NCBI GenBank assembly: GCA_017656425.1
Contig: JACDNV010000002.1
Coordinates: forward strand, 183,512 to 247,511
Origin: Fidelibacterota bacterium
GTDB taxonomy: Bacteria; Fidelibacterota; UBA2242; B5-G15
DNA: 64,000 nt
Reading direction: 5' to 3'
The notes below the pieces were generated by a model that made no database searches, was not told the origin of the DNA, and saw nothing but the letters and a program-made list of their open reading frames with translations. The position numbers were made by a program, and so were the translations under genes. This document shows, piece by piece, positions 14,539 to 49,636 of this stretch. Each line of letters begins with the position of its first letter. Position 1 is the stretch's first letter.

Positions 14539-14546
14539 GTTTTTCT

Positions 14547-14846
14547 TTAGTTTTTCTTAATAACTCCGGGAACTTTAAAAAAGCTACCCTCTTTTTCTGG
14601 CGCATTTTGTAATACCTCTTTTATATCAAGCGATTTTTTTACCTTATCTTCGCGAAACACGTTTACAACATTTTGTACGTGGGATACCGGCTCAACGTTT
14701 GTAGTATCCAGTTCGTTTAATTGTTCCATGTAATCAAGAATTTTTGACAACTGTGTTGCATACAATTCGACTTCTTCTTCCGTTAGGGTAATTCTTGCTA
14801 GATCGGCTATTTTTTTTACCAATTCTTTATCTACTTTCTCAGACAT
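14547..14846 (-). CDS. gatC: Asp/Glu-tRNA(Asn/Gln) amidotransferase subunit C
   Basis: 99 aa, …VKKIADLARITLTEEEVE…LSKILDYMEQLNELDTTNVEP. Confidence 0.85.
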   Translation of the reverse strand: MSEKVDKELVKKIADLARITLTEEEVELYATQLSKILDYMEQLNELDTTNVEPVSHVQNVVNVFREDKVKKSLDIKEVLQNAPEKEGSFFKVPGVIKKN

Positions 14847-14924
14847 AATCTCCCCTGCTTTCAGTCAATTTTTGTGCCATTCAATTTAACTATTTTGCTT
14901 TTCTAAAACAAGAGAGCTTAATTA

Positions 14925-14940
14925 ATATATATATATATAT
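14925..14940. repeat. (AT)8 dinucleotide microsatellite in divergent gatC/metE promoter region
   Basis: Direct reading: atatatatatatatat. Confidence 0.9.
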
Positions 14941-15030
14941 AACTTCTATATCTGTTATTAGCAGATTTGGTGGTTTAATTAATTTTCATTATTTTACAAT
15001 GCCGGTCTGTTCACATGAAGGGGAAGGGAG

Positions 15031-17178
15031 ATGGATATAAAAGCCTATGCATATGGTTTACCAAGATTGGGAGAGAAAAGGGAGTATAAAAAATTAATAG
15101 AGGGATACTGGAAAGGGAAAATCGATGAGAAGTCTTTGCGGGAGGGAATTGAAAGTTTACAAAGATACATGATTGATAATTATAAAAAGTATGTGGATAT
15201 GTATCCCGTTGGTGAGATAACTTATTATGATAATATGCTCGATATGGCGATAATTGTTGGTTTGTATGATGTACAGAATTTACAGGATTATTATGACCTG
15301 TGTAGAGGGAAAAGAGCATTAAAGCTTACCAAATGGTTTGATACAAATTACCATTATCTCGCTCCTGATTTTTCAGGAAAAGATGTTAAAGAACTCGAAC
15401 TAAAATGGAATAAACCATCTTTTTATAAAAGTAAATTTCCAGATGGCATACCATACCTAATTGGGCCATATACTTTTTTAAAATTATCCAGAGGAGTAGA
15501 TAATAATTTTGAAGAACTTTTGAACAAAATTGGTGAAATCTATACAAAGATATGCTGTAATTTTGAAATTGTTCATATTGAAGAGCCTTCGTTTGTTACA
15601 GACATAAAAAAGTGCGAAATCAAAACCATAGAAGATTTATATAAAAAAATAGCAGAAAGTGGAGTGAAAATAAATCTTATAACATACTATGATAGTATAG
15701 ACTTTTTGAAGGATTTTTATGACTTACCTGTTAAATCGTTTGGAATTGATTTAATAAATGGTAAGGAAAATTTAATTACAATTGAAAAATACGGATTCCC
15801 TGATGATAAGATTTTGATAGCAGGAGTTGTCAATGGTAGAAATATATGGCGTACTGATTTAGAAAGAACATTGAGGTTAATTGAAGATATCTCAAAGCGG
15901 GTAAAAAATATATGGATTTCAAATGCTGGACCATTGTATCATTTACCGATTACGATAAAAAATGAAAATTTCCCAGAAAATATTAAAAAGTCATTGTCTT
16001 TTGCCAATGAGAGGCTTGAGGAATTAAAGGTTTTGAAGTTGTTGCTCAGTTCAGAGAAGGTAAATGAGGATATCATAAAAGATTATGAAAGAAAAAATTT
16101 GGAATATATTTATTTTGATGAAAGAAGCATGCCAAAGGTGGAAAAAAGAAAACATGTTCATTTAGATCTACCGCTTTTTCCAACAACCACCATAGGTAGT
16201 TTTCCTCAAACGAAAGAGGTTAGGGTAATAAGAAATAAATACAAAAATGGATTAATTACAGATATGGAATATAATAATTTTATAAAGCAAAAAATAGGAG
16301 AAGTAATAGAACTCCAGGAAAAGATTGGTCTTGATGTTCTTGTCCATGGGGAGTTCGAACGCAGTGATATGGTTGAGTATTTCGCAGAAAAACTGGATGG
16401 TTTCTTAACTACAAAAAATGGCTGGATAATATCATACGGGACAAGATGTTATAAACCTCCAATTAATTTTGGAAATATTAAACGAACAAAACCTCTTGCT
16501 TTGAACGAAATAGTCTATGCAAGAACCCTTACAGAGAAACCTGTAAAGGCTATTCTGACAGGACCTGTAACTATGATTGCCTGGAGTTATGTGAGAGATG
16601 ACGTGCGAATAGATGTTATAGCAAATCAAATTGCCCTGTGTATAAAGGAAGAAATTGAGGATTTGGTAAAGGAAGGGGTTAAGATAATACAAATAGACGA
16701 ACCTGCTTTTAGAGAAAAGGCACCTCTTAAGAAAAGAAAGTGGAGAAATTATTTTAGATGGGCGGTAAATGCTTTTAACATAGCATCATCTATTGACTCA
16801 GATATTCAGATTCATACTCATATGTGCTATTCCGATTTTGGAGAGATAATGGAATATATTCTGAAGATGAATTTTGATGTTATATCTGTAGAGGCAACTA
16901 GGAGTAGAGGAGAGATATTAGACAGCTTTGAAAAGGTGAATTTCGATAGAGAAATAGGGCTGGGAGTATGGGATGTACATTCTCCAAGAGTTCCGGAGAT
17001 TGATGAAATGTTTAGAGTTGTCGATAGAGCGTTAAAAGTTATCCCACCTGATAAGTTTTGGATAAATCCTGACTGCGGATTGAAAACAAGAGGTTGGGAT
17101 GAGGTAATAGCCTCATTAAATAATATGGTTAAAGTTGCAAATATATTAAGGGCCAGATTTCAAGATAGTAACAAATAG
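15031..17178 (+). CDS. metE: Cobalamin-independent methionine synthase
   Basis: N-terminal MetE pattern (GLPRLGEKREYKKLIEGYW), C-terminal Zn-site HTHMCYSDF, ~715 aa two-domain UroD-like architecture. Confidence 0.9.
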   Translation: MDIKAYAYGLPRLGEKREYKKLIEGYWKGKIDEKSLREGIESLQRYMIDNYKKYVDMYPVGEITYYDNMLDMAIIVGLYDVQNLQDYYDLCRGKRALKLTKWFDTNYHYLAPDFSGKDVKELELKWNKPSFYKSKFPDGIPYLIGPYTFLKLSRGVDNNFEELLNKIGEIYTKICCNFEIVHIEEPSFVTDIKKCEIKTIEDLYKKIAESGVKINLITYYDSIDFLKDFYDLPVKSFGIDLINGKENLITIEKYGFPDDKILIAGVVNGRNIWRTDLERTLRLIEDISKRVKNIWISNAGPLYHLPITIKNENFPENIKKSLSFANERLEELKVLKLLLSSEKVNEDIIKDYERKNLEYIYFDERSMPKVEKRKHVHLDLPLFPTTTIGSFPQTKEVRVIRNKYKNGLITDMEYNNFIKQKIGEVIELQEKIGLDVLVHGEFERSDMVEYFAEKLDGFLTTKNGWIISYGTRCYKPPINFGNIKRTKPLALNEIVYARTLTEKPVKAILTGPVTMIAWSYVRDDVRIDVIANQIALCIKEEIEDLVKEGVKIIQIDEPAFREKAPLKKRKWRNYFRWAVNAFNIASSIDSDIQIHTHMCYSDFGEIMEYILKMNFDVISVEATRSRGEILDSFEKVNFDREIGLGVWDVHSPRVPEIDEMFRVVDRALKVIPPDKFWINPDCGLKTRGWDEVIASLNNMVKVANILRARFQDSNK

Positions 17179-17266
17179 CTTATTTACTAATATGTTATAT
17201 TGAAAAATCAGTGTCCAACAGTTTCAATTTTAGCCCTTAATTACCTTGTGATTAGAATTAGTTCAA

Positions 17267-17922
17267 CTATAGTTTTTTATGGCAGAACCACCAGTCGTAG
17301 CAGGTATATTTTTCTTTTCTCTTCTGGGCAGATTCCACATCAGATGCCGGCGGTATGATTACCTCGTCTTTAACAAGTTCATTTTCAGGCCAGTTGGCAG
17401 GTATTGCTACTTTATTTGCGTCGGCAACCTGAAATCCTTTGATCATACGTAAGATTTCATCGATATTTCTTCCCAGTTCCTGTGGGTAGTAGAGTATCGC
17501 TCTTATTTTCCCTCGGGATCTACCACAAATACAACCCTGACAGTGTTAGTGCCTTTACCAGGATGAATCAATCCCAATTTTTTACTTATCTCACCGGTAT
17601 CATCGGCTATTACAGAGAATTGAGTTTCAACTTCCAGATTGTCTTTTATCCACTCAACCCATTTAATGTGAGAAAAAACCTGGTCAATGCTTAGCCCTAT
17701 AAGTTCACAGTTTAACTCCTTAAATTTTTCGTATCTTTCCTGGAAAGCGAAAAATTCTGTGGTGCAAACTGGCGTAAAATCTGCAGGATGACTGAAAAAT
17801 ACAAACCATTTTCCTCTAAAATGTTCAGGAAGATTAAAAGTTCCTAAGGTAGTTTTTACTTTCAATTCAGGGAATTTTTCTCCGATTAATGGAAACTTGT
17901 TTTCATTCATTTTGTTCTCCAT
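17267..17922 (-). pseudogene. 1-Cys (Prx6-type) peroxiredoxin, disrupted by a 1-nt deletion (homopolymer)
   Basis: ORF 17503..17922 has PVCTTE peroxidatic Cys motif and stops at …VVDPEGK*; my translation of the -1 frame downstream gives [26 protein letters not shown]…[11 protein letters not shown], the conserved Prx C-terminus; frames rejoin if one A is added to the AAAA run at 17506-17509. Confidence 0.7.
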
Positions 17923-18074
17923 ATCTTTCTATTGTTAAAATTCATAATTATTTAGATAGATACATATGTGAAATGGTTACAATAATGTAATTGTTATACT
18001 TATTAATTATATAATACATTATGTGGTATAAATATTTGTAGATGCAACTAAATAAAGTATTGATTTATTTTATA

Positions 18075-18090
18075 CTATTTTATAAAATAG
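18075..18090. promoter_or_regulatory. 16-bp perfect palindrome ctattttataaaatag upstream of nrdDG
   Basis: Direct reading; ~80 bp upstream of nrdD start; AT-rich so chance occurrence possible. Confidence 0.25.
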
Positions 18091-18167
18091 ATTGTTAGTT
18101 CTAAAAACATTTTATACGTTGTATTTTATTATTAATTATTTAATTTTAATTCTAAATTTTCCTCTGA

Positions 18168-20276
18168 ATGGGAGGCGTAATAATGTTTGATAAAATAAAA
18201 AAGCGAGATGGAAGGTTAGTTAAGTTTGATGCTGAAAGAATAACAAATGCTATAGCCAAGGCTGGTAAAGCGACAGGGGAGTTTGATCGCCAGACTGCTG
18301 AAAAGTTAGCCATTAGAGTATTAAATCTCGCTCAGCAAATTATAAAAGATGAAATTCCAACGGTCGAACAGATCCAGGATATTGTCGAGGATGTCTTACT
18401 AACTTCACCTTACAAAAAAACGGCAAAAGCTTACATAATATATCGAGAGCAGCACGCTCGGATAAGAGAAATTATAGCCAAAAGTGGGGTCGATCTGGTT
18501 GATCAATATCTGGAAAAAATAGACTGGCAGGTGAATGAAAACAGTAATATGAGTTTTTCTCTCCAAGGGCTCAATAACTATATTTCTTCTGAGATAAGTA
18601 AAACATATTGGCTTAATAAAATTTATCCGCAAGAGATAAGGAAAGCTCACATCGATGGTGATTTTCATATACATGATCTTGGAATACTTTCTGTATATTG
18701 TGTGGGTTGGGATCTATATGATTTGTTACTTGAAGGGTTTAGGGGTGCCCCTGGTAAGGTTGAAAGTAAACCCGCTAAACATTTTAGATCGGCTCTTGGA
18801 CAAATTGTAAACTTTTTCTATACACTTCAGGGTGAGGCTGCGGGAGCCCAGGCGTTTGCAAATTTTGATACATTACTTGCCCCCTTTATTCGATATGATA
18901 ACCTCAAATTCAGGGATGTAAAGCAGGCAATTCAGGAATTTGTATTTAATGTGAATGTGCCAACTCGCGTTGGTTTCCAGACCCCTTTTACCAATATTAC
19001 ACTCGATCTAACTGTTCCTTCAAATCTAAAAAACACCCCTGTTGTTATTGGTGGAGAGTTAAAGGATGAGACCTATTCAGAATTTCAGGAAGAAATGAAT
19101 TTATTTAATAAAGCTTTTTTTGAAGTTATGATGGAAGGAGATGCTAAGGGACGTGTCTTTACCTTTCCAATTCCAACATACAACATAACAAAAGACTTCG
19201 ATTGGAATAATGAGAATTTAAATGGATTATGGGAGATGACTGCTAAGTATGGCATACCCTATTTTGCTAATTTTATAAATTCAGATATGAATCCTGAGGA
19301 TGCCAGATCAATGTGCTGCAGACTACGCCTTGATACAAGAGTTTTGTATAAAAGGGGTGGTGGACTTTTTGGTGCTAATCCTCTAACAGGAAGTATTGGT
19401 GTGGTGACAATTAATATGCCAAGAATCGGGTATCTTGCGAAAAATGAAGAAGATTTCTTTAATAGACTTGAGAGATTAATGGAGCTTGCAAAAGAAAGTC
19501 TTGAGATCAAGAGAAAGGTACTGGAAAGGTTTACAGCACAAAATCTCTATCCATATGCGAAATATTATCTCAGGAATGTGAAGGAGAGATTTGGTGAATA
19601 CTGGAAAAACCATTTTTCTACAATAGGATTGGTTGGGATGAACGAAGCTCTGCTGAATTTTTTAAAACAGAATATAACAAGTAAAGAGGGAATAGAGCTA
19701 ACAATTAGAGTTCTTGACTTTATGAGGAAGAAGCTACTTGAATTTCAGGAGGAGACTGGCAACAACTACAATCTAGAAGCTACGCCTGCTGAGGGTGCTT
19801 CATATAGGTTAGCAAGAATAGATAAGGATAAATATCCTTTAATTATTTGTGCAAATGAGGAATACTATAAGCATGGAGCCGAGCCATTTTATACAAACTC
19901 TACATCACTACCAGTAAACTGTACCGATGACATATTTGAGGCACTTGAACTGCAAAATGAAATACAGACAAAGTATACAGGTGGAACGGTACTACATATT
20001 TATCTTGGTGAGAAAGTAGACAATCATGAGGCTATAAAATTACTTACTAAGAAGATATGTGAAAACTATAAATTGCCATATTTTACCTTTACCCCAACTT
20101 TCAGTGTGTGTGAAGAGCATGGATATATTGCAGGTGAGCATGAAAGGTGTCCAAGGTGTGGTAATGAATGTGAAGTTTACTCTCGAGTCGTGGGGTATTT
20201 AAGACCTACGAATCAATGGAATAAAGGAAAGAGAGAAGAGTTTAAACTCAGAAAATCTTTTAAAGTAAAACAGTGA
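18168..20276 (+). CDS. nrdD: Anaerobic ribonucleoside-triphosphate reductase (class III)
   Basis: N-terminal ATP-cone (MFDKIKKRDGRLVKFD), C-terminal Zn-ribbon CPRCG and glycyl-radical motif RVVGYLRP. Confidence 0.9.
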   Translation: MGGVIMFDKIKKRDGRLVKFDAERITNAIAKAGKATGEFDRQTAEKLAIRVLNLAQQIIKDEIPTVEQIQDIVEDVLLTSPYKKTAKAYIIYREQHARIREIIAKSGVDLVDQYLEKIDWQVNENSNMSFSLQGLNNYISSEISKTYWLNKIYPQEIRKAHIDGDFHIHDLGILSVYCVGWDLYDLLLEGFRGAPGKVESKPAKHFRSALGQIVNFFYTLQGEAAGAQAFANFDTLLAPFIRYDNLKFRDVKQAIQEFVFNVNVPTRVGFQTPFTNITLDLTVPSNLKNTPVVIGGELKDETYSEFQEEMNLFNKAFFEVMMEGDAKGRVFTFPIPTYNITKDFDWNNENLNGLWEMTAKYGIPYFANFINSDMNPEDARSMCCRLRLDTRVLYKRGGGLFGANPLTGSIGVVTINMPRIGYLAKNEEDFFNRLERLMELAKESLEIKRKVLERFTAQNLYPYAKYYLRNVKERFGEYWKNHFSTIGLVGMNEALLNFLKQNITSKEGIELTIRVLDFMRKKLLEFQEETGNNYNLEATPAEGASYRLARIDKDKYPLIICANEEYYKHGAEPFYTNSTSLPVNCTDDIFEALELQNEIQTKYTGGTVLHIYLGEKVDNHEAIKLLTKKICENYKLPYFTFTPTFSVCEEHGYIAGEHERCPRCGNECEVYSRVVGYLRPTNQWNKGKREEFKLRKSFKVKQ

Positions 20277-44016: not shown

Positions 44017-45084
44017 ATGAAGTTATTGAAAATTTCAAACATCATTTTAGTTGTTGTATTGTTTATAGGCAGTTTAATTTTTAATATCTCCTGTCAGAGT
44101 CCAGAAGTCACGTCCGCAAAGGTTTATCTCCAGCAGAATAACCCGGATGCAGCTGAAGAACAGCTTTTAATAGCTCTTGAAAGAGAGCCTGAAAACCCGG
44201 AGGTTACGTATCTTCTTGCTATTGGTGTTTATGCACAGAAAAAGGATTGGGAAAAAGCGAGGTATTACTTAGATGAGACGATAAAAAGAGATACCACATA
44301 TAGGGCAAAGGTTGATGATGCTAAGAAAAGAATATGGAATGAAATCCATAATGAAGGTGCAAATTATTTTAACGAAGCCCTAAATGCAATACTGGACATA
44401 GAAAAGGATTCATTATTAGAGGAAGCTGCGAATAGATTTGAAAAGGCATTGCTTTTTTCCGGTACAGAGGCACCTACATATAATGGATTGATAAAATGCT
44501 ATTATATGTTAGGAGATACAGATAATGTTATAAAGACTGGTCAGAAAGCTCTCGAAAATGGGATATTTGACAAGGATGTATTCTTCTATTATTCGCAGGC
44601 TTTATGGAGTAGAGGTCAGCAGGATATAGTTCTTGAACAGCTTGATAAAGCCTTGGAAGAGCATCCGGATATTCGCGAGTTATATGTGCTAAAGATTCAG
44701 TTTCTTGCTGATTTAAATAGAAACGAAGAGGCTTTGAAGTATGCCAAAATTCTCGCTGATAAGTATCCCGATGATTTGGATGTGAAGTTCATTCTAGCTC
44801 AATTGTATGCGAGAGCTGGTTATTTAGATGAGGCAAAGGTAGAATATCAGAAAATACTGGCGGAAAATCCGGAGGATCTTGAAGTCCTTCAGAGAATCGC
44901 AAAAGCCTATTTTGATTCTAAGGATTGGCCTATGGCTGAGATGTATGCAAGGAAAATAGTTGAATTAGAACCAAATGACCCATACGGTTATGAGGTTTTA
45001 TGGAAGTCGATATATAATCAGGGTAGACTTGAAGAAGCTCAAAAATATAGAGCTATAGAAAAGAGTTTACGAGGTCAACAATAA
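44017..45084 (+). CDS. TPR-repeat lipoprotein
   Basis: Signal peptide + lipobox (NISC), multiple TPR helices. Confidence 0.6.
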   Translation: MKLLKISNIILVVVLFIGSLIFNISCQSPEVTSAKVYLQQNNPDAAEEQLLIALEREPENPEVTYLLAIGVYAQKKDWEKARYYLDETIKRDTTYRAKVDDAKKRIWNEIHNEGANYFNEALNAILDIEKDSLLEEAANRFEKALLFSGTEAPTYNGLIKCYYMLGDTDNVIKTGQKALENGIFDKDVFFYYSQALWSRGQQDIVLEQLDKALEEHPDIRELYVLKIQFLADLNRNEEALKYAKILADKYPDDLDVKFILAQLYARAGYLDEAKVEYQKILAENPEDLEVLQRIAKAYFDSKDWPMAEMYARKIVELEPNDPYGYEVLWKSIYNQGRLEEAQKYRAIEKSLRGQQ

Positions 45085-45090
45085 TTTTTA

Positions 45091-45987
45091 TTATCTTAAC
45101 TTAGCACGTTTTTTGAGAAATTCAGTCAGTGCAATACCTACGTTTTGGTCAGTTCTTAATTGTGCAAAGTCTATTTTATTCTGACTTAATTCTTTTTTAT
45201 AAAAAGATATAATACCAAAAATAGTTTTTATATATGAATCTCTTATATACCATGGTTGGCTTATAATCGAATCACCTGTTTCTCTATCCACAAATTTTAT
45301 GTTATCTTTGTAACGAAAGTTTAGCTCCTGTGGATCTAATATTTGAAAAACTATTACCTCATGCTTTTTGTGTTTGAAATGTTTTAGCCCCTGTACTATT
45401 TCATAGGGATCATCCATTAAATCTGAAATAAGAATAATTAATCCTCTTTTTTTGATTTTTTCTGCCATTTCATGAATGATTGGGGCTACTTTTGTCTCCC
45501 CACCCAATTTAGCATTTTGTATTTCAACAAGAATATTATCCAGATGTCCAAATTTAGCCGATGGGGGTATATATCTATTAATTTTTGTATCAAAAAGTAT
45601 TAGCCCAACCGCATCCTGCTGTTTTAACATCAAATATGAGAGTGCGGAAGAAATGATACCTCCGTATTCAAATTTAGATATTTCATTGGATTTAAATTCC
45701 ATTGATCCACTTTTATCAAGTATTATATAGCATTTAAGATTTGTTTCTTCTTCGAATTGTTTGACGAAGAATCTATCGGTTTTTCCGTAAAGCTTCCAAT
45801 CTATGTGTTTTACCTCATCTCCTGCCATATAGGGTCGGTGCTCTGCAAACTCCACTGAAAATCCATGGTAGGGACTTTTATGGAGACCAATAATAAAACC
45901 CTCTACTGCAAGCCTTGTTCTCAGTTTTATATTATCGAGTTTTGCAAGTACTTGTGGATCAAGATATTTTAGTTTTTCATTATTCAT
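45091..45987 (-). CDS. DUF58-family protein (vWA-like, MoxR-associated)
   Basis: DUF58 pattern downstream of and overlapping a MoxR ATPase. Confidence 0.7.
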   Translation of the reverse strand: MNNEKLKYLDPQVLAKLDNIKLRTRLAVEGFIIGLHKSPYHGFSVEFAEHRPYMAGDEVKHIDWKLYGKTDRFFVKQFEEETNLKCYIILDKSGSMEFKSNEISKFEYGGIISSALSYLMLKQQDAVGLILFDTKINRYIPPSAKFGHLDNILVEIQNAKLGGETKVAPIIHEMAEKIKKRGLIILISDLMDDPYEIVQGLKHFKHKKHEVIVFQILDPQELNFRYKDNIKFVDRETGDSIISQPWYIRDSYIKTIFGIISFYKKELSQNKIDFAQLRTDQNVGIALTEFLKKRAKLR

Positions 45988-46979
45988 ATGGTTTTTATTA
46001 GCCTTTCTATTATATGATCAGTACTAATTCCTTCCGCTTCTGCATTAAAATTCTTGATAATTCTGTGTCTTAAGACTGGAAGTGAAATTTTAATAACATC
46101 ATCTATTTCTGGGGAGGGTCTACCATCGAGTAAAGCTACTGCCTTTGCTGCAAGAATAAGATATTGACTTGCTCTTGGGCCGGCTCCCCATTCAACCCAC
46201 TCATTTATGAAATCAGGGCAGCCATCTCTGCCTGGGCGAGAATTTGCTGACAATTTGACGGCAAAATCGATAACATTATCCGAAACAGGGACCTGCAGGA
46301 TCAGACCCTGAATTTCAATTATTTCATCCTTTGAAACGATTTTTTCTAAGGTTGATAGAGGAGCTGAAGTTGTTGTTTTTACAATTTCTTTTTCCTCTTT
46401 AAAAGAAGGATAGTCTACATTGAGACAGAACATAAACCTATCCAATTGAGCCTCTGGTAATGGATATGTTCCTTCCTGTTCAATCGGATTCTGAGTGGCA
46501 AGTACAAAAAATGGTTCCTCCAGGATGTATGTTTTACCAGCTGCCGTTACACGATGCTCCTGCATTGCTTCTAGGAGGGCAGATTGAGTCTTGGGTGGCG
46601 TCCTGTTTATTTCATCCGCAAGGATAATATTGGCGAAAATGGGTCCTTTATAGAATTTAAATGATCTTTTACCACTTGCTTTATCCTCTTCAATAATTTC
46701 AGTCCCTACGATATCACTGGGCATCAGATCGGGAGTAAATTGAATTCTTGAAAACTTTAGATCCAAGATTTCGGATATTGATTTTATTATCAATGTTTTG
46801 GCAAGTCCAGGGACACCTATTAGCAGGCAGTGTCCGCGGCAAAAGATTGCAATAAGTATTTTTTCAATAATTTCCCTCTGACCTACGATTCTTTTCCCTA
46901 TTTCATTAAATATTCTTGCTTTTATATTGATAATCTTATCTAAAATGCCAATATCGTTATTTAATTCTACTTTTTTCAT
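45984..46979 (-). CDS. MoxR-family AAA+ ATPase
   Basis: Walker A GVPGLAKT, Walker B ILADEINR, AAA_3 architecture, 331 aa. Confidence 0.85.
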   Translation of the reverse strand: MKKVELNNDIGILDKIINIKARIFNEIGKRIVGQREIIEKILIAIFCRGHCLLIGVPGLAKTLIIKSISEILDLKFSRIQFTPDLMPSDIVGTEIIEEDKASGKRSFKFYKGPIFANIILADEINRTPPKTQSALLEAMQEHRVTAAGKTYILEEPFFVLATQNPIEQEGTYPLPEAQLDRFMFCLNVDYPSFKEEKEIVKTTTSAPLSTLEKIVSKDEIIEIQGLILQVPVSDNVIDFAVKLSANSRPGRDGCPDFINEWVEWGAGPRASQYLILAAKAVALLDGRPSPEIDDVIKISLPVLRHRIIKNFNAEAEGISTDHIIERLIKTI

Positions 46980-46982
46980 AAA

Positions 46983-47804
46983 TTATTCCTTTCTGTTTGG
47001 TTTATCCAGTTGTTCTGGTTTTTGTAATCTATGTACGGCTCCAAGCACGAATTTACTTATCTGTGCTCCATCAACTATTCTGTGATCGAAAGTACCTCCA
47101 AAAGGTAAAATTGAACGTATTTTTATTTCTCCATTTATCACTACAGGCTTATCCTGTATTTTCCCTATCATTATCACAGCCGGAACTCTCCCCAATGGAA
47201 ATAGAGCTCCCAGACCTACCGTAAGTCCCAGACTACCGATATTTGAAAGTATCAAACTACCAAAGGGGTCACTGGGTATATTAAGAAATGGAAATTTTAA
47301 ACCCAGATCATACACCCAGAACTTGATCAGTTTAACGAACCACGTTCTGAAAGGCCATGGAATTTTTGATAGAAACTTTTTAGCATCAAACCCCTCTAAT
47401 TCTTCTCCTTTTAATCGTATTTTTTCAACCTCTTCATTTAATTTATCACAGATTTCGCTTACTGAGAGCTCATTAGCCTTCTTTATAATAACAGCAGTCA
47501 TTTCTGTTCCCTCGTCTATTGACACCGATATACAAATATTAACATTTTTTCTGAACTTGAATTTCCCCCTTGTTATGTAGCAGTTTATTTCAGGTACATC
47601 CTCATGCAGAGTCCTTGCCAGGGCCGCTATCACAAAGTGTGTGATAGTGAGTTTTTTACCCTTTCCCTTGGCTTTTTCAATATAGTTTAAAACATCTGTG
47701 ACATCGACTTCAAAAGTACCATATATTTTGCTATCGGATGGTGCTTTGTATGCTGATATTGCAAGTAGTCTCCATGGACTTATATAGTTTTGTTTTTCAT
47801 TCAT
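46983..47804 (-). CDS. Stand-alone 2-oxoacid dehydrogenase E2-type acyltransferase catalytic domain protein (no lipoyl or E1/E3-binding domain)
   Basis: C-terminal catalytic motif TFDHRIVDGAQ (DHRxxDG) and CAT-like fold length; 273 aa; 4-nt gap to moxR. Confidence 0.6.
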   Translation of the reverse strand: MNEKQNYISPWRLLAISAYKAPSDSKIYGTFEVDVTDVLNYIEKAKGKGKKLTITHFVIAALARTLHEDVPEINCYITRGKFKFRKNVNICISVSIDEGTEMTAVIIKKANELSVSEICDKLNEEVEKIRLKGEELEGFDAKKFLSKIPWPFRTWFVKLIKFWVYDLGLKFPFLNIPSDPFGSLILSNIGSLGLTVGLGALFPLGRVPAVIMIGKIQDKPVVINGEIKIRSILPFGGTFDHRIVDGAQISKFVLGAVHRLQKPEQLDKPNRKE

Positions 47805-48100
47805 AAAGTTACCTCGTCACAATTAACAGTGTAATTTAAGATTACATTGTTATAATCTCCATTAAAAACAGGTAATTTTAGTTTGATTTGGAATTTTATC
47901 GATGATGGGGGATATTTTTACTACCGTAGTATCTATAATATTGTTGAAACTTAAAAAAATGTATATCATAAATTATTTAGTGTATGATTAAAGAATTTTA
48001 GTAAATTATATTAAAATTGTTAGTGGAGATTATTTGTGAGTTCAGAATGTATTTTAAGAGCAGTTAAAGAGGCAGGCTGTTCTAATATAACTATTTCTGA

Positions 48101-49636
48101 GTGGTGGGTATGAACATTCTACTCCTTTCTATGCCCAATGTGATAATAGCCTTTAATAAGGCGTGTCGGTTTCCTTCTCTTGGATTATCCTCAATTGCAG
48201 GTAATCTAGAAGGTAAGCATAGGGTTTTAATTGTGGATTTAGTCATGTTGAACAAGGGTGATATAAAAGCCTTCTTATATAGAATGTGTAAAGATTTCCA
48301 ACCGGATATTGTTGGTTTAAGCTGTTTTAGTTTTCAGTATAGAACTGCATTAGAAATTGCAAAATTAATCAAGCGCACGAATAATAAAGTAATAACGGTC
48401 TTTGGCGGATACCACCCTACGCTAGCATATAAAATGATACCTGAAGAAGAATTTCAATATATCGATTTTATTGTAAGGAATGAGGGGGAAAAAACGTTTA
48501 ATAAACTGGTAAATCTTTTAAAAAGAGATGAGGTTTATGATATCCCTGGAATATCTTATAAATATGAAGGTAAAATTATCCATAAACCTCCAGTTAAAGT
48601 TCTTGATACTGAAGAAATAAATTTACCCAATAGGGATGTAAGATTTTTTAAAAATTATAAAGCATGGGGGCTAAAAGCCGATGTCGCTGAAACCTCACGA
48701 GGGTGTACTTTTAACTGTGATATATGTTCAATTACTGGGATGTACGGTAGAACCTTTAGGAAGTTTTCTGTCAAAAGAATTATTGAAGATTTAAAACAGA
48801 TGAAGAAAATGGGGAACAGAGTAATATTTTTTGTTGATGATAATATAACACTTGATTTGAATCATCTTGAACAGGTTTGTGATGCTATCATATATGAAAG
48901 ATTAAATGATATTCATTATATAACGCAGGCAAGTGTATATGGAATAGCTTCAAGTGCGAAGATCGTTAGAAAAATGGCAAGAGCTGGTTTTAAAACGATC
49001 TTTCTTGGTATTGAAAATGTATCCCGGAAAAATCTTAATTTTATAAACAAGAATACTCTTGTAACAGAGGAATTGACCGTCCAGGCTGTAAGGTACCTAA
49101 AAGAGAATAAGATCATAGTTTTAGGTTCGGTAATTGTGGGTAATCCTGATGACACTGAGGAGGATATATGGGAAAACTTTAGATTTCTTAAAAGACTTAA
49201 TGTTGATGCACCTCTTATTTTTACTCCTACACCTCATATTGGAACAGCTTTGAGAGGAAAACTCATACATCAGGGTTATATAACAAATCCAAATGACTTA
49301 ACATGGTATAATGGAGTTAAGGCGAATATAAGAACAAAGTTTTTAACAACAGAAAAGATTAATAAATTAGTACTGAAAATGTACCGATATTACCCTGGAT
49401 TTAAATATTTTTTTACGAATAATATTTTAAGAAACTATCCAGGATATTATATCAGAAGATTTTTTATCGAACTATATGAGATAATTAGTGATTATATAAA
49501 AGTTATATTTGGAAAGTTAAGCGTAGATTTATTAAAAAGAGCATTTCAAAAAGATTATGAAAGAAGAAAAAGGTGGTTACTGGATGATTTTCAAAAAAAA
49601 TGCGACTGCTGCAATTGCGTTTATTACAGGGGTTAA
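48101..49636 (+). CDS. B12-binding-domain radical SAM (class B) enzyme, function unknown
   Basis: N-terminal Rossmann-like B12-binding region, CTFNCDIC (CxxxCxxC) radical SAM motif, C-terminal CDCCNC tail. Confidence 0.8.
   Translation: MVGMNILLLSMPNVIIAFNKACRFPSLGLSSIAGNLEGKHRVLIVDLVMLNKGDIKAFLYRMCKDFQPDIVGLSCFSFQYRTALEIAKLIKRTNNKVITVFGGYHPTLAYKMIPEEEFQYIDFIVRNEGEKTFNKLVNLLKRDEVYDIPGISYKYEGKIIHKPPVKVLDTEEINLPNRDVRFFKNYKAWGLKADVAETSRGCTFNCDICSITGMYGRTFRKFSVKRIIEDLKQMKKMGNRVIFFVDDNITLDLNHLEQVCDAIIYERLNDIHYITQASVYGIASSAKIVRKMARAGFKTIFLGIENVSRKNLNFINKNTLVTEELTVQAVRYLKENKIIVLGSVIVGNPDDTEEDIWENFRFLKRLNVDAPLIFTPTPHIGTALRGKLIHQGYITNPNDLTWYNGVKANIRTKFLTTEKINKLVLKMYRYYPGFKYFFTNNILRNYPGYYIRRFFIELYEIISDYIKVIFGKLSVDLLKRAFQKDYERRKRWLLDDFQKKCDCCNCVYYRG

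Follow-up and report, generated by a model that had tools for sequence, protein, structure and literature searches.

The string of three minus-strand genes described here, from a 64-kb stretch of Marinimicrobia DNA hereafter referred to as the window, seems to be the product of a recent operon fusion and not a novel chaperone–enzyme system. It encodes, in order, a stand-alone acyltransferase homolog with the fold of a 2-oxoacid dehydrogenase E2 catalytic domain (E2cat), a MoxR-type AAA+ ATPase, and a DUF58 protein. The reading favored here, with reasonable though not strong confidence, is that two units, each inherited on its own elsewhere, have been brought side by side in this lineage and are probably co-transcribed. 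A recent fusion is indicated by the narrow distribution of the arrangement: outside the window it occurs only in two close relatives, and the 168 more distant loci surveyed all lack it.

E2cat (46983 to 47804, minus strand) specifies a lipoyl-less protein of 273 residues and matches the Pfam profile PF00198 (2-oxoacid_dh) at 1.4e-30, with the match split over two stretches. The MoxR-type (MRP-like) ATPase, 331 residues in length, is encoded at 45984 to 46979 (minus strand). It matches AAA_3 at 3.8e-64 and AAA_lid_2 at about 4e-15 (4.2e-15), and it displays a Walker A motif, GVPGLAKT, at residue 55 and a Walker B motif, ADEINR, at residue 121. The succession of an AAA_3 region with both Walker motifs and an AAA lid, together with the adjoining DUF58 (VWA/MIDAS) gene, places it in the MoxR class. 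The DUF58 protein (298 residues; 45091 to 45987, minus strand) likewise belongs to its named family on the basis of PF01882 (2.1e-44), a VWA-like core (VWA_2 at 1.9e-8), and a MIDAS DxSxS motif, which is DKSGS at residue 91. None of the three proteins contains a signal peptide or transmembrane segment. As read from the sequence, E2cat and moxR are separated by 3 nt (TAA-ttt-ATG), and moxR and the DUF58 gene share a 4-nt ATGA overlap. The three domain assignments, the positions of the reading frames, and the tight packing given in the first-pass annotation are all borne out by these profile matches and junctions. Converging on the DUF58 gene, with 6 nt between the two stop codons, is a plus-strand gene for a 355-residue lipoprotein that matches TPR families (44017 to 45084). 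On the other side of the string, an AT-rich intergenic region of 296 nt (47805 to 48100, from the ORF map) lies between E2cat and a divergent gene for a B12-binding radical SAM protein.

The distribution of the arrangement was surveyed in the 80 best-matching loci from genomes (of more than 525) and the 80 best-matching loci from metagenomes (of more than 583). Apart from the window itself, the only ones of these best-match loci in which E2cat adjoins moxR are L081 and L084, two metagenomic relatives whose E2cat proteins are 74% identical to that of the window and 84% identical to each other. No MoxR or DUF58 gene was detected near E2cat in any of the 88 other E2cat loci surveyed (39–61% identity; 75 with at least 1 kb of downstream sequence), even when a varied set of MoxR and DUF58 sequences served as queries at E ≤ 1e-2. 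In the reverse direction, E2cat was not found beside MoxR in any of the 80 closest MoxR loci (54–69% identity), 69 of which extend at least 900 nt upstream. Linkage recurring in independent lineages, as expected of a dedicated MoxR–client pair, was thus seen in neither set of best-match loci, a sample that independent recurrence in distant lineages could have escaped. A 332-residue protein encoded downstream of an E2cat homolog of 60% identity (L082 and L083) has the length of a MoxR but is not one. An adjacency confined to two relatives does not bear out the earlier proposal of a module in which a chaperone assists the acyltransferase. The result comes close to what the first-pass annotation had named as evidence against it, namely an adjacency unique to this genome, as recurrence is limited to these two.

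The organization within the three genomes does not speak entirely for a fortuitous juxtaposition. In both L081 and L084, E2cat and moxR overlap by 8 nt rather than being separated by the 3-nt gap of the window, and the genes upstream of E2cat differ, the radical SAM gene of the window being replaced in L081 by genes for Amidase_3, Por_Secre_tail, and AmiA-like proteins. The tight packing has therefore outlived a change of upstream neighbor, and a selected operon would look the same. Such a history would suit a true chaperone–client module, in which a MoxR hexamer, acting through the VWA/MIDAS domain of the DUF58 protein, would assemble, activate, or remodel an oligomeric E2cat, perhaps with the TPR lipoprotein as a partner. 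E2-fold proteins are obligate oligomers, and as such they are plausible AAA+ clients. We nevertheless regard this module as unlikely. All three genomes with the arrangement share the close packing, but they are similar enough (74–84% identity) for the synteny to have been simply inherited, and recurrence outside this one narrow clade is nil in the loci surveyed. Moreover, both partners are conserved, evidently functional, and non-adjacent in many genomes, and export is predicted for the TPR lipoprotein, in contrast to the three products of the string, which lack a signal peptide or transmembrane segment. Client-linked MoxR/VWA systems include RavA–ViaA with LdcI, CbbQ–CbbO with Rubisco, and NorQ–NorD with NO reductase. 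As in those systems, an AAA+ MoxR protein and a VWA/MIDAS adaptor are encoded beside a candidate client enzyme. Unlike the E2cat linkage, however, theirs extends across many lineages.

An observation favorable to a chaperone–client relationship comes from Francisella. According to the accounts of Dieppedale 2013 given in PMC5368251 and PMC11834572, a Bat-type MoxR binds the pyruvate and oxoglutarate dehydrogenases (PDH and OGDH) of that organism and is needed for their full activity. On this precedent it is not unreasonable to link MoxR with an E2-fold protein, and this counts against the juxtaposition reading. The resemblance, as far as those accounts go, lies in a Bat-type MoxR tied to enzymes with an E2-fold core. 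The difference is that the Francisella enzymes are complete, lipoylated complexes encoded elsewhere with no gene adjacency, whereas in the window the link is one of gene adjacency.

The second unit of the juxtaposition, the MoxR–DUF58 pair, recurs without E2cat. Pairing of the two genes was observed in at least 40 of the 80 loci of MoxR relatives, and the order moxR, DUF58 gene, convergent TPR gene is found without E2cat in L085, L086, L105, and L107. The genes upstream of these E2cat-free pairs vary, being mgsA in some cases and divergent rlmN and PNP genes in others. The conserved unit in Marinimicrobia is thus MoxR–DUF58 plus the convergent TPR lipoprotein. The latter is predicted to be exported, with Cys26 as the last residue of FNISC in FNISC-QSPEVTSAK. 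Orthologs in the same convergent position show 74% identity in L081, 57% in L085, and 53% in L086. Those in L105 and L107 are only 25–26% identical but share an N-terminal CxSxE.T.AK motif. In all, the TPR gene adjoins the DUF58 gene, on the opposite strand, in six lineages, and in L085 and L086 it closes a separate co-directional string of kinase, mtnA, and TPR genes. The suggestion that the TPR lipoprotein is a partner of the module holds in part, its position after MoxR–DUF58 being kept in L081, L085, L086, L105, and L107. A further extension, in which E2cat under the control of MoxR–DUF58 and the conserved TPR lipoprotein would constitute a new chaperone-dependent, envelope-lipid-modifying module in this Marinimicrobia clade, is considered very unlikely.

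In Bacteroides fragilis, Riemerella anatipestifer, and Francisella tularensis, the Bat/MoxR operons consist of moxR, DUF58, vWA, and TPR genes (PMC11834572). The window resembles them in having an MRP-type MoxR followed, with translational overlap, by a DUF58/VWA-MIDAS gene and in the positional association of a TPR gene. It differs in that downstream BatA_N/VWA membrane proteins are missing, the TPR gene is convergent rather than co-directional, and moxR is not the first gene but is preceded by E2cat. Indeed, a search of the window with a BatA_N+VWA protein from L104 revealed no BatA homolog. Genes for BatA_N+VWA proteins do follow the DUF58 gene in approximately 11 of the 80 loci of MoxR relatives, in keeping with the initial remark that such partners commonly come next. 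The possibility of a defense system was set aside, as PADLOC returned nothing for E2cat, the DUF58 protein, or the TPR protein, and only a marginal match of MoxR to DolB at 3e-5.

With respect to the first unit, the AF2 model of E2cat (pLDDT 88) retrieves E2 catalytic domains as its top PDB matches in Foldseek (E≈1e-18), including 3mae, 1b5s, 1c4t, and 9njt, with target-normalized TM scores of 0.7–0.86. The active site elements of these core domains, DHRxxDG and Ser/Thr-Asn-Ile-Gly, are present in E2cat as DHRIVDG at 240 and SNIG at 187, and the predicted catalytic residues are Ser 187, His 241, and Asp 245. In an alignment of 30 family members, Asp 240, His 241, Arg 242, Asp 245, and Gly 246 are invariant, and Ser/Thr 187 and Asn 188 are conserved. 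Sequence identity to the E2 core domains is only 17–26%, and relative to the PDB sequences E2cat contains a conserved, family-specific insertion of approximately 45 residues (about residues 136–181, with PWPFR at 149) in place of the short segment that precedes the active site serine strand. The insertion is rich in aromatic residues (26% versus 9.5% overall) and displays an invariant proline and a near-invariant WP.R motif across the family. The C-terminus is a variable, polar tail.

No lipoyl (PF00364) or E3_binding (PF02817) domain was matched in E2cat by Pfam, in agreement with the first description of this frame. Upstream of its start the frame is closed by a stop codon, with no other start in between, such that no hidden N-terminal lipoyl domain is possible, and close homologs are likewise approximately 270 residues in length. 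Each of the 79 clusters of close homologs carries PF00198 as its only domain, with the exception of one that also has SpoU_methylase; nearly all are about 260–300 residues, and neither a lipoyl nor an E3-binding domain occurs in any of the 79. Among the homology matches, PF02817 is present in canonical E2s and absent from members of the E2cat family. Measured against an E2 component, then, E2cat possesses the CAT-fold domain and the active site His, Asp, and Ser, but not the lipoyl domain, PF02817, or linkage to E1 and E3 genes.

In its usual contexts, the stand-alone E2cat gene sits away from MoxR–DUF58. In the nearest outgroups its upstream neighbor is a divergent AmiA-like gene, which in L081 is still present approximately 2.6 kb, or two genes, upstream. 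There are about 24 Woeseiaceae-type (gammaproteobacterial) loci with ispB upstream, and in most of them E2cat begins −1 to 17 nt after it; in four loci it begins 6–11 nt after a TMEM164-family gene. The recurrent neighbors that were domain-scanned or read (clusters present in at least four of the 80 best-matching genome loci, from more than 525) are ispB, rplU, AmiA-like, TMEM164, M50, and transporter genes. A linkage of E2cat to the divergent B12-radical-SAM gene, to Era, or to pyrE/pyrF was also considered and dismissed, as these co-occurred with it in none of the best 80 loci.

Could E2cat be a genuine 2-oxoacid dehydrogenase component, that is, a lipoyl-less core or auxiliary E2 supplied with lipoyl domains in trans, with MoxR serving the complex? 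A precedent exists: in the actinobacterial OdhA, the E2o domain borrows the lipoyl domains of E2p. OdhA/KGD (PDB 2xt6 and 8p5r), which the E2cat family profile matches weakly at 1e-6 among PDB sequences, thus resembles E2cat in having an E2 catalytic domain that works without its own lipoyl domain. The intact PF00198 fold, with its DHRxxDG motif and serine, and the Francisella link as reported in the accounts cited above point in the same direction. In OdhA/KGD, however, the domain is part of one protein with E1o and works within a dehydrogenase complex, whereas E2cat is stand-alone with unrelated neighbors. In the approximately 40 kb of the window covered by domain scans or by reading of the translations, no E1, E3, or lipoyl-protein gene was recognized, and the recurrent neighbors inspected in these ways in the best 80 genome loci (L001–L080) included none either. 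Matches of E2cat to canonical E2s are no better than 4e-13 and stay under 30% identity. The aromatic insertion before the active site serine strand, the eukaryotic fusions to START, PH, and ACBP rather than to lipoyl domains, and the polar tail, which would be at odds with the hydrophobic end of core-forming E2s, all argue against such a role, and we consider it highly improbable.

The family itself is large, with 425 representatives (50%-identity clusters) at E ≤ 1e-30, almost all of which are single-domain proteins of about 270 residues. In the literature searched, no published function was found for this family, no paper describing comparable stand-alone, lipoyl-less E2 catalytic domains or their START/PH fusions, and none combining PF00198 with MoxR. 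Judged by its sequence, E2cat represents a large, uncharacterized CAT-fold subfamily that has kept the Ser/His/Asp machinery for acyl transfer from CoA thioesters. The rare fusions observed in protists (START+E2cat, PH+START+E2cat, and ACBP+PH+START+E2cat) suggest an acyl-CoA-dependent, lipid-directed acyltransferase rather than a subunit of a dehydrogenase complex. The predicted enzyme would be soluble or membrane-peripheral and its acceptor hydrophobic or lipid-like, an assignment drawn from domain fusions and gene neighbors.

The junctions of 3 and −4 nt leave no promoter space between the three genes, which are probably co-transcribed, with 47805 to 48100 as their presumed promoter region. 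Internal promoters or terminators were rejected, given so little room and promoter- and terminator-like matches no more numerous than in shuffles. Sigma-70-like matches lie on the minus strand at 47902–47875, 48023–47995, and 48057–48029, in a total count not above that of shuffled sequences. An imperfect inverted repeat noted at the outset as a possible operator does exist at 47824 to 47852, 20–48 nt upstream of the E2cat start, with 12-nt arms (11 of 12 positions complementary) and a 5-nt spacer. That it binds a repressor of the string is, in our view, extremely doubtful. Although it occupies the only promoter-capable region of the string, repeats of this quality are no commoner than chance, with 2 in the window and 2.4 ± 2.2 after block shuffling that preserves composition, and five further imperfect inverted repeats occur in the 451-nt AT-rich region. 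It has no conserved counterpart ahead of the orthologous genes in L081 and L084, and no regulator gene adjoins. No Rfam family of regulatory or structured RNA reached its gathering score anywhere in the window.

The juxtaposition of two units can be envisaged as follows. The first would be a stand-alone E2cat acyltransferase that transfers an acyl group from acyl-CoA to a lipid-like acceptor. The second would be a MoxR AAA+ ATPase and the DUF58 protein as its VWA/MIDAS adaptor, kept together with the convergent TPR lipoprotein in Marinimicrobia and, by analogy with other MoxR/VWA pairs, presumably an ATP-driven machine for the remodeling or maturation of a client. A rearrangement in one genus-level clade would have set the MoxR–DUF58(–TPR) block directly behind E2cat, and the tightly packed genes would now use the common promoter region. 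There is probably no functional dependency between E2cat and MoxR.

As a new MoxR–client system the string carries little weight, given that the comparison indicates an adjacency both recent and narrow. Its two parts are of more consequence. The Marinimicrobia hold a minimal MoxR–DUF58 pair with the convergent TPR lipoprotein as its sole conserved neighbor, which makes it a reduced relative of the Bat operon, itself little understood. The genes of approximately 270 codons labeled "2-oxo acid dehydrogenase subunit E2" constitute a large family of their own, with lipid-related fusions and neighbors, and metabolic reconstructions of Marinimicrobia, Woeseiaceae, or Saprospiraceae MAGs should not take them as a sign of PDH or OGDH complexes.

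The three minus-strand genes of the string lie exactly where the first-pass annotation had placed them, and Pfam assigned to each the domain that it had proposed. The first (46983..47804) encodes a 273-residue acyltransferase homologue, hereafter E2cat, in which the 2-oxoacid_dh catalytic domain (PF00198, 1.4e-30) was matched in two separate stretches; in NCBIfam its E2 matches were all sub-threshold. Pfam revealed neither a lipoyl nor an E3-binding domain, and since the frame opens directly after a stop codon, none is hidden upstream. The DHRIVDG motif at position 240 and SNIG at 187 are intact. The second gene (45984..46979) encodes a 331-residue MoxR AAA+ ATPase (AAA_3, 3.8e-64, plus AAA_lid_2) with intact Walker A and Walker B motifs, and the third (45091..45987) a 298-residue DUF58 protein (DUF58, 2.1e-44, plus VWA_2) with an intact MIDAS motif, DKSGS; both display every family feature that could be tested. 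As read from the sequence, a 3-nt gap (TAA-ttt-ATG) separates E2cat from MoxR, and MoxR and DUF58 overlap by 4 nt (ATGA). The convergent gene for a TPR lipoprotein (44017..45084, plus strand) ends 6 nt from the DUF58 stop codon. By an exact protein match, the sequence belongs to a Candidatus Marinimicrobia MAG. The surroundings, of which ∼40 kb was annotated or read, are ordinary chromosomal housekeeping genes (hslUV, hflKC, rpoN, kds genes, pyrG, metE, nrdDG, pyrEF, and era). No defence-system or Rfam family match was obtained for the string.

The inverted repeat reported upstream of E2cat is present at 47824-47852, with 11 of 12 positions complementary across a 5-nt spacer. Its reading as an operator was not upheld: two repeats of such quality occur in the window versus 2.4±2.2 in block shuffles, and it is not conserved upstream of orthologous operons. 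Five other imperfect inverted repeats lie within the same 451 nt, and sequences resembling promoters or terminators were no more numerous there than in shuffles. The only other inverted repeat of 12 nt with at most one mismatch in the window (18063-18092) is located in very low-complexity sequence just upstream of nrdD. Long AT-rich gaps precede metE (14539-15030; gene start at 15031) and nrdD (17179-18167; gene start at 18168); no Rfam match reached the gathering score in either, and no cobalamin or SAM riboswitch was recognized. Divergent from E2cat is a gene for a B12-binding radical SAM protein (48101-49636, plus strand), the 3' end of which shares 37 nt with the era ORF if the latter is taken from its first start codon. 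Among NCBIfam families the protein most resembles BchE (1.4e-48) and the hopanoid/lipid methylases HpnR and TIGR04072, with every score falling far short of the cut-offs, and its gene was linked to E2cat at no other locus among the best 80.

Scanning one genome per species with an E2cat profile yielded more than 525 loci, the best 80 of which, with flanks of up to 8 kb, derive from Marinimicrobia/Fidelibacterota, Woeseiaceae, Saprospiraceae, and others. These 80 were searched by tblastn, first with the three window proteins (MoxR, DUF58, and TPR) and afterwards with a more diverse query set of five MoxRs and three DUF58s (E <= 1e-2); none of the three genes was placed beside an E2cat homologue (0/80). 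Eight metagenomic homologues were additionally inspected one by one. The closest, P0002 and P0003 (on contigs L081 and L084), are 74% identical to the window protein and 84% to each other; both loci display the E2cat–MoxR–DUF58 order, the first two genes overlapping by 8 nt, and L081 also carries the convergent TPR gene (74% identity). The link is absent in the next-closest homologues, at 58-61% identity (L001, P0004, P0006, P0009, P0014, and P0017). The recurrent MoxR linkage sought in such a neighborhood survey was confined to the window, L081, and L084, with 0 of 88 E2cat loci outside this clade showing it, 75 of them with 1 kb or more sequenced downstream. The scans from the E2cat and MoxR sides each cover the best 80 loci, beyond which rare independent recurrences could lie.

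In the nearest Marinimicrobia outgroups, the slot held by MoxR in the window clade is occupied by a conserved protein of 465-471 residues with no Pfam match on record, encoded on the same strand ∼90-190 nt 3' of E2cat (L165 6005-7402, L167 5425-6840, L169 1176-2576). In P0004, a relative of 60% identity, the E2cat frame was called as one 428-residue product with a SpoU_methylase domain (L082 6001-7287, L083 5690-6976); found on two contigs from different samples, this putative product is either a true fusion or a run-through.

None of the best 80 MoxR relatives in metagenome contigs (54-69% identical; 69 with at least 900 nt upstream) has an E2cat gene beside it. In the closest of these loci (L085, L086, L105, and L107), MoxR is followed by DUF58 and a convergent TPR lipoprotein gene, the product of which retains an N-terminal lipobox and a CQSPEVTSAK-type motif at identities down to 25%. 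What lies upstream differs among them, being either mgsA or a divergent rlmN together with a purine nucleoside phosphorylase gene. The presence of this arrangement without E2cat and behind varied upstream genes indicates that what is conserved in Marinimicrobia is the MoxR–DUF58 pair together with the convergent TPR gene, a unit that E2cat appears to have joined in one narrow clade. In other lineages among the 80, a BatA_N+VWA protein follows DUF58, the classical Bat-type layout, as had been anticipated for MoxR–DUF58 pairs; the string, by contrast, is missing the BatA and BatB genes required of a Bat operon. In L085 (3109-6236), L086 (3608-6720), and L105 (7886-9942), the convergent TPR gene is the last in a run of same-strand genes that includes one for a PfkB-family kinase, and in the first two loci an mtnA-like isomerase, recognized by translation only, lies between kinase and TPR gene; the window TPR gene, unlike these, stands alone and divergent from pyrF.

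The TPR lipoprotein had been suggested as a candidate partner. Its position is conserved with MoxR–DUF58, of which it is, on gene order, the better-supported positional partner. It is predicted to be exported, however, whereas E2cat, MoxR, and DUF58 have no signal or TM segment, and therefore direct contact would need a membrane link, none of which is seen here.

An AmiA-like gene, the usual divergent neighbor of E2cat in the nearest outgroups, is retained upstream of E2cat in L081, at a distance of ∼2.6 kb (two genes), which suggests either relocation of the MoxR block to the E2cat locus or loss of the DNA in between. Our preferred explanation, held with somewhat better than even confidence, is that E2cat and MoxR–DUF58(–TPR) would be two independent units, fused by a recent rearrangement into one probable transcription unit. 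The hallmark of MoxR–client systems is a client linkage that recurs across lineages. With no such recurrence here, the originally proposed module, in which MoxR–DUF58 serves the acyltransferase as a chaperone does its client, is considered unlikely, even though E2cat and MoxR are packed very tightly, the block is kept despite a changed upstream flank, and a Bat-type MoxR of Francisella is reported, in passages of two papers citing that work (PMC5368251, PMC11834572), to bind PDH and OGDH, both of which need it for full activity.

The AlphaFold2 model of E2cat, based on 30 family members, has a pLDDT of 88 and a pTM of 0.87, and the top PDB matches, without exception, are catalytic cores of E2 (3mae, 9njt, 1c4t, 1b5s; E≈1e-18, 17-26% identity). 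As can be seen from the profile-to-PDB alignment, a ∼45-residue insertion (profile positions ∼136 to ∼181) takes the place of about six residues in canonical E2s. It is modeled as two helices, and aromatic residues make up 26% of it versus 9.5% of the whole protein. Within it P149 is invariant, and W150, P151, and R153 are nearly so. The catalytic Ser/Thr, His, and Asp are conserved. An exhaustive profile search (E <= 1e-30) defined a family of 425 representatives (50%-identity clusters), nearly all of them single-domain proteins of 260-300 residues. The rare long members (among P0161, P0184, P0234, and P0262) are eukaryotic fusions, namely PH+START+E2cat in Chromosphaera perkinsii, START+E2cat in Aphanomyces stellatus (KAF0697839.1), and ACBP+PH+START+E2cat in the EukProt transcriptome GECG01. 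These keep DHRxxD and the invariant proline of the insertion, and their accessory domains hint at a lipid-directed acyltransferase.

In most of the ∼24 Woeseiaceae-type loci with ispB (polyprenyl synthase) upstream, E2cat starts -1 to 17 nt after it, and rplU adjoins the pair; these gammaproteobacterial loci fall within L031-L079 (e.g. L042 6982-8909) of the best 80 of more than 525. In four Marinimicrobia loci (L022, L023, L024, and L032), E2cat lies 6-11 nt after the gene for a TMEM164-family (PF14808) membrane protein, with a Peptidase_M50 gene 3' in the three that have downstream sequence. Members of the TMEM164 superfamily are lipid acyl/acetyl transferases (PMC12345273). Both linkages are more widely conserved than that to MoxR among the E2cat loci examined, and no E1, E3, or lipoyl-protein genes were recognized among the recurrent neighbors domain-scanned or read.

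E2cat shares its fold and active site with the E2 component of 2-oxoacid dehydrogenase complexes but has neither the lipoyl domain, the E3-binding domain, nor the E1/E3 gene context of the latter, and thus should not be filed as one. A role in trans as a lipoyl-less subunit of a dehydrogenase is very improbable in light of its neighbors, the insertion, and the lipid-domain fusions, and E2cat is probably not a subunit of such a complex. Literature searches returned nothing on this stand-alone family, nor on any connection between PF00198 and MoxR. On the basis of the fold, the active site, the aromatic insertion, the START/PH/ACBP fusions, the ispB and TMEM164 neighbors, and the missing E1, E3, and lipoyl genes, we infer that E2cat may transfer acyl groups from acyl-CoA to a hydrophobic, lipid-like acceptor. 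That the string as a whole forms a chaperone-dependent lipid-acylation module is quite doubtful; it is a set of known kinds of protein in a lineage-specific gene order.
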